A stretch of 64,000 nt of DNA from an uncultured Verrucomicrobiae bacterium (lineage in GTDB: Bacteria > Verrucomicrobiota > Verrucomicrobiia > Chthoniobacterales > Xiphinematobacteraceae), in contig CAVPNI010000003.1 in NCBI GenBank assembly GCA_963706715.1, positions 64,001 to 128,000 on the forward strand. Direction: 5' to 3'. The notes beneath the pieces were generated by a model that saw only the letters and a program-made list of their open reading frames with translations, had not been told where the DNA came from and searched no databases. This document shows, one piece after another, positions 4-3,281 of the stretch; positions within the stretch are counted from its first letter, which is position 1; every line of letters starts with the position of its first letter. Both the position numbers and the translations under genes were made by a program.

Positions 4-492
4 TTACTCTATATGTTTCTTCCAAAAATCACCCCATATTCCCAGATCGATTTCTTTTTTTCCAAAATCATCGATCAGCTGGATTACAGCTTTATTTTGA
101 AAATTCTCGTCAACTATAATCCAGCCATCCGGTTCTAAATTCACAAGCCGCTGCCAAAAAGCGTTGAAGATACTTACTGGCCAACTCAGAACCCCGAGCA
201 TTTCAGCATTCCAAGGAATGATGAAGACTTCACCGCTTTTTGGAGGCAAGATATCCCCCATTTCATATTGTGCCGCTAACGGAAAGCGTCGCTCCAATAC
301 ACCGGATAAAATGTCGTTTCTGGCTGAAAAAGCTTTAGACGCTCGATCGCGCACCTTATCGCTATCTTCCAGAGTAAGGAATTCAGTCGCTTCCTCTGGA
401 ACGCCAACTTTCCGCAGATTCTCGACAAACTTAGACTTGTGAACTACGCCCAAGTTTTTTCGGCGAAGGATATCTAAACGGCTATTCTCCAT
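4..492 (-). CDS. Putative immunity protein for the orphan toxin C-terminus
   Basis: 162-aa ORF directly downstream of, and overlapping by 11 bp, the toxin-tip ORF ending at 482. This is the typical toxin-immunity arrangement. Confidence 0.65.
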   Translation of the reverse strand: MENSRLDILRRKNLGVVHKSKFVENLRKVGVPEEATEFLTLEDSDKVRDRASKAFSARNDILSGVLERRFPLAAQYEMGDILPPKSGEVFIIPWNAEMLGVLSWPVSIFNAFWQRLVNLEPDGWIIVDENFQNKAVIQLIDDFGKKEIDLGIWGDFWKKHIE

Positions 493-1606
493 AATTTATC
501 TTGATCTTTCCTTCATTGAAAACACGTACACGTCCTAGGGGATCAAGTCCATAGTCAGCGGGCGGCTTCACACTGCCTACTTCCCAGTGAGAAGGATGCC
601 CCACAACCCGATCTGTAGTCTGTTGGGTGACGGCTAGTCGTTTGCCATGCGAGTTATATAGGTACTGCATCCCTGCATCAGTCCGCAGTTGGCTTACGGG
701 TTGTTGACTTGTAGGTATACCCGCTATAAGCATGGATTGTTTACGTGCTGCATTCGATGTTAGTTGTTTCCCCGCAACAGAAGCGACGGCGGCGGATTTA
801 CCCACAATGCCAATTGGCACTCCCGCGATGCCGACCTCGGGTGAGGCCAGCTATCGTGCCTGCGGTCCCGGGCTTGACACCCACGCTTTGCAGTCCTCTG
901 GATATAGCTTGTGCGGTAAATGATTGTGCGGTTTGGCCTGTCCACATCTGTCGCAATCCAGCCGCGGTCAGATCGCCCCCATGCCCTACTAGTCCCACGC
1001 CCGCTGCCGTGCCAAACGGCGTGCGTGAGCTATTAAGGCTTTTCCAGCAAATCCCTCGAGTATTCCTCCTGCTGCCATAAATGCTCCAGCAACTCTGTTC
1101 CCTAGCCGTCCTCGCTTCTCAATTTTTTCATCCGCAGACTCTTTCGGTTTTCGGGGCTTTTCTGATTTTTCCTGGCTACTCTCGCTTTTTCTGCCATCGG
1201 TCACGCGCGGCGGTGCAGTTGTTGGCGTCGATGTTACAGAAGGAGGAGTCATTGATTTGCGAACATGTATTGGTGCGCTAGCGCCGCAGCATCCAACTCC
1301 AGTATGACCCCCGCCGGAGCTGCCACCTTGACTGGAACTGGACTTGCCGCTTCCACTAGAACTGGACTTGCTGCCTCCACTGGAACTAGCTCTGCCGCCT
1401 CCTCCACTGGAACCGCCGCCACCTCCGCCTCCGCGAGATCCTCCTCTTGCGCCTCTCTTAATACGTCTACTCGTCTCTGCAACAGAAGGTCGTGAAGCAT
1501 TGTCCCATTTGGATCGTTTAGTAGAGTGGACTCGTTCCCTTTCACGTATCGCAGCTCCAATCGCTGGGGTCAGGTCAATGGCTTCCTTGGCGTACTGTCC
1601 ACTTTT
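482..1606 (-). pseudogene. Orphan polymorphic toxin module: duplicated trunk plus an alternative C-terminal tip (possibly Ntox47-like nuclease)
   Basis: 797-1487 is near-identical to 2238-3000 of the full toxin and diverges after VPIGIVGK into a new tip (AGIPTSQQP...QQTTDR...HWEVGSVK...GRVRVFN). There is no start codon upstream of the trunk. Indels: -1 at 1028/1029 and +1 at 839-841. Confidence 0.8.
797..1487. repeat. Direct repeat copy 1 (691 bp) of the toxin trunk
   Basis: Aligns with 2238-3000 except for three fewer 24-bp units, two 1-bp indels and rare substitutions. Confidence 0.95.
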
Positions 1607-1717
1607 TCAGCACCACTTCACGTCAGTTCTTCTTCCCTTTTTATTTTCAAAACTTGTTCGCGAAACTTCAGTGGATACATTCTCTAAATATAATCGTTTT
1701 ATAGTTCATTCGCTATA
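1595..1717 (-). mobile_element. Remnants of IS ends: IS630-like left end with transposase start, abutting an IS3-like terminal sequence
   Basis: The minus strand reads TATAGCGAATGAACTATAAA..., then ATG encoding MYPLKFREQVLKIKREEELT* (resembles IS630 HTH N-termini), then TGAAGTGGTGCTGAAAAAGTGGACA (resembles IS3-family TG...GGACA ends). Confidence 0.45.
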
Positions 1718-1947
1718 GCAGGTTTCCAGTCGTCTTCAGTCAGCCCCCATCGAACATATGCTTCTCGTTGTGCCTCCGATCGCGTAGGATGCCAGCTATC
1801 AAAATCAGAGCCTTCATCCAAATTTTGGTGACCATAAAGATACCAACCGCCGGTATTTTTTGAATCTTCTTCCAAGATAATCCACCGGATGTTTTGTGCT
1901 TGGCTGGCAGGTGATACTTGTGCAATCAAACGACTTTGTGGCTTCAT
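1699..1947 (-). CDS. Putative cognate immunity protein (82 aa)
   Basis: ATGA overlap with the toxin stop at 1944-1947. Small acidic, Trp-rich protein (GWYLY...FDSW...EA...WG...W). Confidence 0.75.
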   Translation of the reverse strand: MKPQSRLIAQVSPASQAQNIRWIILEEDSKNTGGWYLYGHQNLDEGSDFDSWHPTRSEAQREAYVRWGLTEDDWKPAIANEL

Positions 1948-3281
1948 GGAACAATCAGTGGTGTGTGGATATTTTTCAAAGTCACTCCAGTCAAGTCGAA
2001 TTTTTCAAAATGGACATGTGGACCAATCTTGCCATGGCTTCCACTAATATCAGTTGCTGACATTCTAAATTGGCGTAATCCATCAGCAGAACGATAAACA
2101 CCGGAGCCAGGATTTCCAAGCTCACTATAACCTGGCTTAAGCCATTTTTCAGCCGTTGTAATTGCACTGTCTATTGTTCGCGATCCAGAGGTAACATTAA
2201 CAAGGCCTCTTGTCCCTTTTGCAGCAATGGCTCCTGCTTTACCCACAATGCCAATTGGCACTCCCGCGATGCCGACCTCGGTGAGGCCAGCTATCGTGCC
2301 TGCGGTCCCGGGCTTGACACCCACGCTTTGCAGTCCTCTGGATATAGCTTGTGCGGTAAATGATTGTGCGGTTTGGCCTGTCCACATCTGTCGCAATCCA
2401 GCCGCGGTCAGATCGCCCCCATGCCCTACTAGTCCCACGCCCGCTGCCGTGCCAAACGGCGTGCGTGATGCTATTAAGGCTTTTCCAGCAAATCCCTCGA
2501 GTATTCCTCCTGCTGCCATAAATGCTCCAGCAACTCTGTTCCCTAGCCGTCCTCGCTTCTCAATTTTTTCATCCGCAGACTCTTTCGGTTTTCGGGGCTT
2601 TTCTGATTTTTCCTGGCTACTCTCGCTTTTTCTGCCATCGGTCACGCGCGGCGGTGCAGTTGTTGGCGTCGATGTTACAGAAGGAGGAGTCATTGATTTG
2701 CGAACATGTATTGGTGCGCTAGCGCCGCAGCATCCAACTCCAGTATGACCCCCGCCGGAGCTGCCACCTTGACTGGAACTGGACTTGCCGCCTCTGCTGG
2801 AACTGGACTTGCCGCTTCCACTGGAACTGGACTTGCCGCTTCCACTAGAACTGGACTTGCTGCCTCCACTGGAACTGGACTTGCTGCCTCCACTGGAACT
2901 GGCTCTGCCGCCTCCTCCACTGGAACCGCCGCCACCTCCGCCTCCGCGAGATCCTCCTCTTGCGCCTCTCTTAATACGTCTACTCGTCTCTGCAACAGAA
3001 CTCTGATCGTCTTCCTGAAGACTCGTTACCCCAGAAAAGGAAACGACAGGCTCACGTAGAATATCTCCTCCTTTGTTGCTTGGAAAAATTTTTCCAACCG
3101 ATCCGCTTGTTAATCGAGTAGATCCTTGAATAAAGCTTCTGTGCAATTTCTGGAGCGTTTGAGAATCCTTTCCTCCTTCTATTAATTTTGGTTGATCAGA
3201 TCGGATCGGAATTCTTGCAGTAGCGTCATTGGCCTCTGCAAATTCATCATGCATCTGTTGTGTTCCTTGTACCTGGGACAT
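1944..3281 (-). CDS. Polymorphic toxin with Gly/Ser-rich linker, hydrophobic pre-toxin region and a predicted nuclease-type tip
   Basis: The ORF is open from 3413; the likely ATG is 3281 (MSQVQGTQQ). It has GGSKSSSS repeats, a G/A-rich GHGGD...GLRQMWTG region, and the tip GVYRSADGLRQFRM...GPHVHFE...NIH. It is followed by a coupled small ORF. Confidence 0.8.
   Translation of the reverse strand: MSQVQGTQQMHDEFAEANDATARIPIRSDQPKLIEGGKDSQTLQKLHRSFIQGSTRLTSGSVGKIFPSNKGGDILREPVVSFSGVTSLQEDDQSSVAETSRRIKRGARGGSRGGGGGGGSSGGGGRASSSGGSKSSSSGGSKSSSSGSGKSSSSGSGKSSSSRGGKSSSSQGGSSGGGHTGVGCCGASAPIHVRKSMTPPSVTSTPTTAPPRVTDGRKSESSQEKSEKPRKPKESADEKIEKRGRLGNRVAGAFMAAGGILEGFAGKALIASRTPFGTAAGVGLVGHGGDLTAAGLRQMWTGQTAQSFTAQAISRGLQSVGVKPGTAGTIAGLTEVGIAGVPIGIVGKAGAIAAKGTRGLVNVTSGSRTIDSAITTAEKWLKPGYSELGNPGSGVYRSADGLRQFRMSATDISGSHGKIGPHVHFEKFDLTGVTLKNIHTPLIVP
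2238..3000. repeat. Direct repeat copy 2 (763 bp) of the toxin trunk
   Basis: Matches 797-1487. Confidence 0.95.
2772..2891. repeat. 24-bp tandem repeat x5 (encodes G[GS][SG]KSSSS-like units)
   Basis: Units of actggaactggacttgc(c/t)gc(t/c)tcc. Only 2 units are present at 1331-1378. Confidence 0.9.

Follow-up and report, generated by a model that had tools for sequence, protein, structure and literature searches.

In the picture that the literature gives of contact-dependent inhibition (CDI) and Rhs toxins, an incoming pair of toxin tip and immunity gene pushes the old pair downstream. Here we describe a locus that fits this picture in the genome of an uncultured Verrucomicrobiae bacterium of the Xiphinematobacteraceae. 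The stretch analysed, called the window below, comprises 64,000 nt (assembly GCA_963706715.1, contig CAVPNI010000003.1, positions 64,001 to 128,000 of the forward strand), and the locus lies between positions 4 and 3329 of it. All of its parts are read from the minus strand, in the order toxin gene, overlapping small open reading frame (ORF), orphan copy of the toxin's trunk with another tip, and second small ORF, as a preliminary description of the sequence had given it. The conserved trunk, the swappable tips, the adjacent immunity-type ORFs and the orphan cassette together make up the layout of a polymorphic toxin locus, and that description holds in this respect. We consider it likely that the locus is a cassette array of the genome's own Rhs-type polymorphic toxin family, and that its active gene is a shell-less derivative of that family; this judgement concerns the identity of the locus, and we are much less confident about how the toxin travels.

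Besides Rhs toxins, four described systems resemble parts of the locus. DUF4225 (PF13988) is a terminal toxin accompanied by a small transmembrane immunity protein and found behind RHS, PAAR and other heads; its toxicity is periplasmic and directed at the membrane or the wall, and the Vibrio parahaemolyticus representative, a type VI secretion system (T6SS) effector, causes lysis of E. coli from the periplasmic side (Jana et al., 2022, PMC9765294). PT-TG (PF14449) stands between the trafficking part of a toxin and its tip, carries a 15-residue Gly/Asp/Arg/TG motif and is modelled with low confidence (PMC13483458). The T6SS DNase Tde1, a cargo effector, has at its N-terminus a small Gly-rich hydrophobic segment, termed a glycine-zipper region, which precedes the enzymatic toxin and is proposed to carry it over the target membrane (PMC10240207). 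Finally, the CdiA-CT of E. coli A0 34/86, solved with its immunity protein CdiI (PDB 5T86), is called a BECR-fold toxin in bioRxiv 10.64898/2026.05.10.723254.

Relationship to the Rhs toxins of the genome

The toxin was searched by tblastn in its own genome (3.04 Mb in four contigs, C1 to C4, scored 100% complete). Its gene (1944..3329, minus strand, as are all features of the locus) encodes, in order, a leader, a Gly/Ser repeat, a spacer, the trunk and tip 1. The leader (2955..3329, toxin residues 1-125, closing with the conserved motif ET.R(R/G)RIKR) exists in six copies in the genome including that of the window; each of the other five forms the N-terminus of a paralog, namely of four proteins with 1626, 1396, 1391 and 1396 aa and of an ORF cut short at 435 aa. 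The 1626-aa protein, the one leader-bearing paralog that was family-scanned, has RHS_repeat (E 4e-24), DUF6531 and YD repeats, and the other three large ones are of YD type by eye (...YDxxGR... strings). These paralogs also bear on the start of the toxin, which had been described as 445 aa from ATG 3281. That ORF (1944-3281) is present and its frame stays open to 3413; because the five paralogous N-termini (MNQIS.../MTQIS...) align 16 codons further upstream, translation probably begins at ATG 3329 (MNQIF...) and yields 461 aa.

Colinearity with the five paralogs runs beyond the leader, through R(G/R)RIKR and then PIH..SVTS.P..., and spans about 170 paralog residues and about 250 window residues. 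The Gly/Ser-rich low-complexity insert (2715..2954), built on a 24-nt tandem unit repeated six times, is an in-frame, lineage-specific insertion after RRIKR and is missing at that position in all five paralogs. The spacer behind it (2553..2714) starts with PIH..SVTS..P, becomes rich in K/E/S/P and ends in EKRGRLGN. Thereafter the paralogs go on with QQEQAR repeats and a coiled-coil region rich in Trp before they reach the Rhs body, and the window protein passes directly into the trunk. Since its first 250 residues or so are colinear with five Rhs-family paralogs, we read the window protein as an Rhs-family toxin lacking its shell, in which the trunk appears to be joined where an Rhs core would end in DPxGR(F/L)GK.

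The trunk (2238..2552), a 105-aa G/A-rich helical domain that ends in VPIGIVGK, points in the same direction. The genome holds eight copies of it, two in the window and six outside. Two of the latter lie at the very starts of contigs (C4:1-729 and C1:2-727) and are preceded by ...CDPDGRFGK and ...ADPDGRLGK, respectively, and further copies open orphan cassettes of a long array that follows a 1415-aa Rhs protein on C4, in which RHS_repeat (E 2.4e-37), YD repeats and Rhs_assc_core (residues 1124-1185) are recognized. The window trunk is 40-54% identical to these own-genome copies and is preceded by GRLGN where the paralogous cassettes have DPxGR(F/L)GK. The arrangement recurs in other bacteria. 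Among eleven proteins scanned with NCBIfam, eight trunk-bearing ones matched Rhs_assc_core, and their trunks start 0, 0, 7, 7, 20, 28, 34 and 122 residues past it, that is, within 34 residues in seven of the eight. Trunk loci are found in Bacteroidetes, Paraburkholderia, Burkholderia, Sphingomonas and Rhodocyclaceae (seven loci confirmed, 61 pattern matches).

These data bear on the earlier proposal that the toxin belongs to an undescribed class and that its trunk is an unrecognised delivery device unrelated to Rhs or CdiA. In its favour, the whole protein has no Pfam or NCBIfam family, it lacks Rhs repeats, and its leader is an orphan domain. However, the trunk follows the Rhs-associated core both in cassettes of the same genome and in distant phyla, the N-terminal part of some 250 residues is common to five Rhs-family paralogs, and the trunk family is weakly DUF4225-like, as described below. 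The trunk also sits at the toxin end of such proteins and not at the export end; it is no export device, and it is in essence a piece of a known Rhs family. We regard a new class as very improbable and the proposal as largely refuted.

Other statements of the preliminary description on what the protein lacks stood up well. Pfam and NCBIfam gave no family at E<=1 for the toxin, for either tip or for the 162-aa second small ORF, and the sole match of the 82-aa first small ORF was a sub-threshold Peptidase_M74 (E 0.034). Thus the toxin shows no PAAR, LXG or VENN domain at this threshold, nor RHS_repeat or YD_repeat in its 461 aa, which the same scans detect in the paralogs L001:4996-9240 and L004:12434-17314; the Rhs-associated core (TIGR03696, NCBIfam) gave no match either. 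No haemagglutinin, VENN/pretoxin or other CdiA-type Pfam match was obtained, and the genes that flank the locus are kdp genes and an insertion sequence (IS) element, without CdiB or other secretion genes. The hydropathy of the N-terminus reveals no signal-peptide-like segment, in agreement with the absence of a signal peptide noted before. The window toxin is not a CdiA, LXG or PAAR toxin. With Rhs/YD toxins it shares a trunk placed behind the Rhs-associated core, about 250 N-terminal residues held in common with Rhs-family paralogs, a variable C-terminal tip next to an immunity ORF, and an orphan cassette that is displaced and carries a stretch of upstream homology. It differs from them in having neither YD/RHS repeats nor Rhs_assc_core, with only GRLGN left for DPxGR(F/L)GK. 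Because these two defining features, repeats and core, are absent, we do not file the window protein itself as an Rhs protein.

Comparable forms occur elsewhere. The metagenome protein P0007 (528 aa, on a 1.9-kb contig and possibly incomplete) joins the Trp-rich coiled-coil region known from the paralogs directly to the trunk and tip 2 and has no Rhs match, and in P0004 (465 aa) tip 1 follows a long region rich in Gly and Ser, with no Rhs motifs visible in the sequence. Both suggest that the shell-less form is not a one-off.

The large leader-bearing proteins (1391-1626 aa) lie at C1:533425-537630, C2:384121-388347, C3:495693-499934 and C1:226436-231328, and three of them are nearly identical over the parts compared. 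Their YD-repeat region meets the toxin part at a degenerate DSDEGF, where a complete Rhs protein has DPEGRYG, and the C2 and C3 loci are each trailed by lipoprotein-like ORFs and orphan pieces. The large Rhs locus at C4:1-23500 has a transposase ORF before the 1415-aa protein and at least eight orphan cassettes behind it, which start with ...DPxGRFGK, have pre-toxin regions of two kinds and bear various tips, one of which looks TNT-like; interspersed with them are small lipoprotein-like ORFs, and reverse-transcriptase-like ORFs lie near them. Two of the four contigs (C1:2-727, C4:1-729) start inside an Rhs core/trunk junction, so the assembly evidently broke in Rhs repeats, and the true number and linkage of the Rhs genes are uncertain.

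The trunk family and its possible role

A profile built from seven trunks was run on 1.84 billion representative proteins, with clusters at 50% identity, and matched 612 clusters at E<=1e-3, 168 at E<=1e-10 and 6 at E<=1e-30. The same trunk with other tips, which the preliminary description had proposed to look for, is thus found widely, though in 0 of 40 relatives searched. At least 100 residues follow the trunk in 112 of the 150 best representatives (median 140), and at most 50 precede it in 63 of them; many trunk-family proteins come from short metagenome contigs and are possibly fragments, by which this short-N-terminus class is inflated. Among 140 family members, at E<=1, the tips comprise RNAse_A_bac (23), Ntox24 (3) and one each of TNT, Tox-REase-5, Ntox30/33/50, TreTu_C and a deaminase, and the heads comprise RHS_repeat (3), PF03527 RHS (2) and also Tox-PAAR-like, eCIS_core and PT-HINT. 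The same search scored DUF4225 in 56 of the 140 (best 1.7e-7) and a holin family in 14. Over the trunk residues, DUF4225 reached E<=1e-4 in three of the 121 best, of which two, at 31.2 and 26.9 bits, exceed the curated cut-off of 25.9. Taken together, the trunk is a member of a wide, essentially unannotated pre-toxin family that appears distantly related to DUF4225 and usually stands just behind the Rhs cage.

A short stand-alone form is common in this family. One example, in a record of Paraburkholderia podalyriae (L008:5854-6729), is a 291-aa protein with an N-terminus of about 50 residues, the trunk and an RNase A-like tip, the tip type of the 23 members mentioned above, and a small ORF lies next to it.

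The AlphaFold2 (AF2) model of the trunk is a helical hairpin (helices at residues 2-28, 32-58, 65-76 and 81-97) with mean predicted local distance difference test (pLDDT) values of 81-94 per 10-residue block over residues 1-90. A fold search with it returned nothing more specific than generic helical hairpins, whose Z values of up to 8.2 lie under the level considered meaningful for helical models, and the trunk profile had a single match among Protein Data Bank (PDB) sequences, at E 2.2. With 23% Gly and 16% Ala, the G/A-rich helical character of the trunk, as in DUF4225, suggests a membrane-active role. The two share the match of the 56 family members over the trunk and a similar range of heads (RHS, PAAR and others). 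They differ in that the window trunk is internal, is followed by enzymatic tips with soluble, tip-specific ORFs and does not match the DUF4225 model at E<=1, whereas DUF4225 closes its proteins.

PT-TG occupies a corresponding position between trafficking part and tip, and the HGxD...AGxRQxWTG of the trunk recalls its motif by eye. However, PF14449 gave no match at E<=1 in the window protein or in ten paralog or related proteins and is absent from the families listed (25 of 81) for the 140 relatives, and the trunk is modelled as confident helices where PT-TG is not. The segment of Tde1 is likened here to the trunk in its proposed role alone, as a small Gly-rich hydrophobic stretch before an enzymatic toxin; it differs in its N-terminal place in a cargo effector, and the window trunk has no strict GxxxGxxxG-type motif.

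The DUF4225 similarity raises the question whether the trunk itself is the weapon, a lytic or pore-forming domain acting from the periplasm to which the tips would be accessory. The lysis of E. coli by the V. parahaemolyticus protein, the DUF4225 and holin scores in the family and the helical hairpin of the model all agree with this. Nevertheless, in the 112 of 150 members mentioned above a further domain of at least 100 residues follows the trunk, in many cases a known cytoplasm-acting enzyme such as RNase A or TNT; one trunk serves two cassettes whose soluble immunity-type ORFs differ from each other, and a small transmembrane immunity gene is absent; and the first of these ORFs is modelled on the tip and not on the trunk. 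We consider this explanation quite unlikely. A role of the trunk as translocator is proposed instead, because it precedes cytoplasm-acting enzymes in most family members, because DUF4225 toxicity is periplasmic and membrane- or wall-directed, and because the two cassettes with one trunk have different soluble immunity ORFs.

The data establish the anatomy, the homologies, the linkage of tip 1 with its small ORF and their modelled binding; export, membrane translocation and RNase action of the shell-less Rhs-type toxin are inferred to take the following course. The leader would direct export by a route encoded outside the locus; in the target cell the moderately hydrophobic trunk would engage the membrane and carry the tip across; tip 1 would then damage RNA; and Imm1, the product of the first small ORF, would protect the producer by covering a conserved R/H/E patch of tip 1.

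Tips and immunity proteins

Tip 1 (1947..2237) is a 97-aa C-terminal toxin domain. Homologues form the ends of the Rhs-like proteins P0002 and P0003 and occur in P0004, in the metagenome loci L022 and L023 and in a 34-39% identical paralog on C4. Residues invariant in the seven sequences include D52, R58, H74, H76 and E78, which are candidate acid, His and Arg residues of the BECR type. The AF2 model is confident (block means of pLDDT 87-97 over residues 121-200). Its best Foldseek row is the CdiA-CT 5t86_A (E 0.11, probability 0.92, TM-target 0.44, 13-14% identity), and the VIA search, which is independent of Foldseek, aligned the same structure with Z 6.3 over 77 of 104 residues at a root-mean-square deviation of 3.2; PDB sequences gave 0 matches. 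The pair CdiA-CT/CdiI thus resembles ours in several ways: its toxin ranked first among known structures when tip 1 was searched by two independent tools, both toxins are small alpha/beta domains with conserved D/H/R-type residues, and in both pairs an immunity protein lies over the active-site face, modelled here and solved there. It differs in that Imm1 has no detected relation to CdiI and in that no CdiA, haemagglutinin or VENN parts accompany the window toxin, and at such identity, E value and Z the likeness is a lead at most. Our best lead for tip 1 is accordingly a putative BECR-like RNase.

Imm1 (1699..1947) is the 82-aa ORF whose ATG starts on the TGA of the toxin gene, the ATGA overlap reported before. 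Six homologues were found at 63-72% identity. A scan with the Imm1 alignment placed an Imm1 homologue directly after the tip 1 homologue, with a 4-nt overlap, in both of two metagenome loci (L022, L023). The first of them is itself an array of trunk-tipX, immX, trunk-tip1 and imm1, with the switch point again after PIGIVGK, and own-genome paralogs change over at this point as well. In complex modelling, tip 1 and Imm1 scored 0.68 (three runs: 0.66, 0.68 and 0.69) against 0.04 for the best control, with at least 93% of contacts shared among the runs and a partner pLDDT of at least 81. The mark of 0.68 is reached by 116 of 157 solved complexes and by 2 of 215 mismatched pairs, rough counts here since custom alignments were used. 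The modelled interface brings together the invariant R58, H76 and E78 of tip 1 and the invariant TGGWYLYGH and FDSW stretches of Imm1, and Imm1 is predicted to be the cognate immunity protein of tip 1.

Tip 2 (485..796) is a 104-aa orphan toxin domain. A search retrieved 13 proteins, namely 12 at 50-75% identity, among them some with RHS_repeat, DUF6531 and PF03527, and P0007, and it revealed a conserved DRV.GH..HWE motif of invariant columns. The AF2 model has a pLDDT of 88. Fold searches gave no match (best Foldseek E 0.33, best VIA Z 4.9), which does not amount to a new fold, and the three matches among PDB sequences were at chance level (best E 0.036). Imm2 (4..492), the 162-aa ORF, shares 11 nt with the end of tip 2, is present in a single copy in the genome and belongs to no family; it is presumed, by its position, to be the immunity protein of tip 2. 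Atlas leads for Imm2 (score 0.90: DUF6756, DUF2947 and PF14101 clusters) were too weak and were left aside.

Export of the toxin

A further difference from Rhs/YD toxins is that no TssC, PAAR or Hcp match was found in the genome, VgrG not being among the searches; a phage-type sheath gave no match either. TssC occurs in five of the 40 relatives, none of the same genus. The leader, for its part, is an orphan domain: searches at E<=0.001 gave no copy in the 40 relatives (a single match lies at 0.008), nor did any of 400 other genomes in a phylum sample yield one, and an ESM Atlas search with it gave no usable match.

The genome does have type III secretion system (T3SS) genes at C2:69861-74825 (L014): SctV scores 872 bits against a cut-off of 692 and SctU 373 bits against 358, and next to them are weak matches to SctY, SctX and SycN. 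A second FHIPEP gene, and therefore a flagellar export system, is absent. SctV also exceeds its cut-off in three of four same-genus genomes, two of them of about 0.9 Mb, and the incomplete fourth shows a partial match; its retention across the genus, including the genomes of about 0.9 Mb, speaks for a lineage associated with hosts. The signals of T3SS substrates lie at the N-terminus and are not cleaved off. As the leader is N-terminal and uncleaved, and the T3SS is the only system of the genome that reads N-terminal signals, the T3SS is the leading candidate for export.

A bolder version of this idea takes the leader as a T3SS signal with a chaperone-binding region and the toxin as a substrate delivered by injection into eukaryotic host cells. 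Furin-type sites read R-x-K/R-R, and the RRIKR at the end of the leader could then be a site for a host convertase. The SctV and SctU matches, the conservation of SctV in the genus, the lack of a T6SS, PAAR, Hcp or phage-type sheath in the searches, and the Ser/Thr/Gln/Pro-rich leader without signal peptide favour it, and it is compatible with a shell-less Rhs-type toxin. It is opposed by the absence of a chaperone-like gene beside the leader-bearing loci inspected, by the immunity genes and antibacterial-type tips, which argue for bacterial targets, and by the distribution of the parts: because the T3SS is ancestral to the genus and leader and trunk are found only in this genome, there is no co-occurrence signal. 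We consider such injection unlikely. Somewhat less so, and still doubtful, is the more general proposal that the orphan leader of about 125 residues is a new export tag for Rhs-type toxins without a contractile injection system, possibly via the T3SS; the cage would be dispensable, and leader, linker, DUF4225-like trunk and tip would form a minimal self-translocating toxin whose trunk alone carries the tip over the target membrane.

Orphan copy and history of the locus

The orphan copy (797..1487) repeats the leader end, the G/S repeat, the spacer and the trunk, and lacks a start codon. The duplicated DNA (782-1487 against 2223-3000) consists of three blocks, two of 300 and 189 nt that are 100% identical and one of 59 nt at 90% identity; some 700 nt at about 100% identity cannot arise by chance. 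Tandem Repeats Finder gave 6.0 copies of the 24-nt unit in the toxin gene (2772-2915) and 3.0 in the orphan. The identity of the two copies stops right after the codons for VPIGIVGK, and the orphan tail encodes the different 104 aa of tip 2. The near-identical trunks that diverge at this point, as described before, are thus present in the DNA, but the orphan frame is not intact. The block offsets of 1441, 1440 and 1441 place one missing base at 1028/1029 and one extra base near 840, by which the central 189 nt of the orphan trunk are out of frame and the trunk is split over the ORFs 989-1252, 798-998 and 482-820. Upstream of Met 1252 there is no start codon and no full leader, its last 15 codons or so being retained. 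Leader end, repeat, spacer and trunk are kept at 100% identity to the active copy, so the duplication is recent or the copies are kept alike by conversion.

The G/S repeat is open in a second frame too (2690-2995 and 1249-1560, minus strand), giving E/A/V/P-rich peptide ORFs of 101 and 103 aa, which are probably a side effect of how the repeat is composed.

Between Imm1 and the orphan lies a spacer (1488..1698) with an IS630-like remnant: its frame translation, MYPLKFREQVLKIKREEELT, resembles the start of the transposase at C3:63376-63750 over about the first 20 codons, and a 25-27-nt repeat accompanies it. A complete IS630-like gene stands beyond imm2, left of base 1 (C3:62898-63750), followed by housekeeping genes; inspection of this side therefore gave no support to the expectation that further cassettes lie beyond the left edge. 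Five further copies of the 25-27-nt element (1596-1622) lie on C2, twice as a close inverted pair near C2:660375-660450; the element may be a terminal repeat of an IS or of a miniature inverted-repeat transposable element.

Tip exchange would have proceeded by homologous recombination in the shared trunk, with a breakpoint just after PIGIVGK, and the orphan (trunk, tip 2 and Imm2) would be a displaced earlier cassette, now frame-shifted and parted from the active gene by the IS630-like remnant. Such a history fits the displacement of an old tip-immunity pair by an incoming one.

The two indels are mutually compensating 1-nt changes in about 700 nt otherwise without substitution against the active copy. 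This is odd, and an assembly or polishing error could explain them instead of real silencing. Two public sequencing runs from two studies contain a small share of the stretch (0.09 and 0.08 of sampled words). Four tiny contigs from these runs matched, two of them identical to 1314-1562 and 1455-1721 and two as short, low-similarity matches to the repeat; they cover only 1314-1721, with the indel sites, the leader-trunk junction and both tips outside. An assembly chimera as the origin of the shell-less gene was also considered and is unlikely: the DNA of its leader, repeat, spacer and trunk matches in the genome only the orphan and one 105-nt stretch at 72%.

Decay is the strongest competing account of the locus. 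The shell-less gene would be a non-functional by-product of recombination or deletion in an eroding Rhs system, and only the immunity genes may matter, against kin. In favour of this, two frameshifts interrupt the orphan, which also lacks a start codon and is bordered by an IS630-like remnant and a complete IS; a transposase ORF precedes the C4 Rhs gene, another leader-bearing copy is truncated at 435 aa, the one large paralog scanned has no recognisable Rhs_assc_core, no T6SS is there to fire Rhs toxins, and trunk and leader were not found in 40 relatives. On the other hand, the 461-codon frame is intact over a repeat-rich stretch, and the 6-versus-3 repeat difference is a multiple of 24 nt that keeps the frame. 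The ATGA overlap of toxin and imm1 is retained as in L022 and L023, and all the invariant residues of tip 1 are present. A second shell-less form exists elsewhere (P0007), and P0004 bears tip 1 behind a G/S-rich region with no Rhs motifs visible. In our judgement, decay is possible, if somewhat improbable.

Several points weigh against a working shell-less Rhs-type toxin as we describe it. Its gene could be a by-product, given the many IS elements and recombined Rhs pieces that the genome contains and the frameshifts in the orphan. The 1626-aa paralog, the only large leader-bearing one scanned with NCBIfam, has YD repeats and no Rhs_assc_core match. The window trunk has no Pfam match at E<=1, DUF4225 included, and its tie to DUF4225 comes through relatives, of which only two exceed the cut-off; its hydropathy is moderate only (19-residue maximum 1.69), and a strict small-xxx-small-xxx-small motif has 0 matches in it against a family median of 3, for which the label "glycine zipper" was dropped. 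The fold match of tip 1 is weak, as E 0.11 indicates and as Z 6.3 lies where chance arrangements occur, and 5T86 is without a published mechanism according to bioRxiv 10.64898/2026.05.10.723254. Finally, production and export of the toxin are presumed, and no public RNA run was found to contain the stretch.

Neighbouring genes

A kdp cluster lies immediately upstream of the toxin gene. Its first member is a 384-aa protein (3625-4779, minus strand) with KdpD sensor and Usp domains only, the kinase part not being seen in that ORF. The end of this KdpD-like gene is overlapped by 16 nt by a 486-aa ORF (4764-6224, minus strand), for which Pfam gave only a sub-threshold PAS_12 (E 0.059). The ORFs at 6294-6887 and 6899-8920, both on the minus strand, are KdpC and KdpB, respectively, by the appearance of their sequences.

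Conclusions

What remains unusual about the locus is the missing Rhs shell, a leader without relatives in 400 other genomes of the phylum sample, and a genome in which no T6SS was found. Current views are not overturned by it, and the locus may be partly decaying. A rich Rhs-type arsenal without a T6SS, behind a leader that is not found in those other genomes, poses a concrete question of export for this organism. The shell-less form, represented by the window and one metagenome protein, tests the need for the Rhs cage. The trunk family, for its part, is a testable candidate for the passage of toxins over the inner membrane of the target. It stands between Rhs, PAAR-like or eCIS heads and many enzymatic tips in 612 clusters and is essentially unannotated; defining this family would improve the annotation of toxins.

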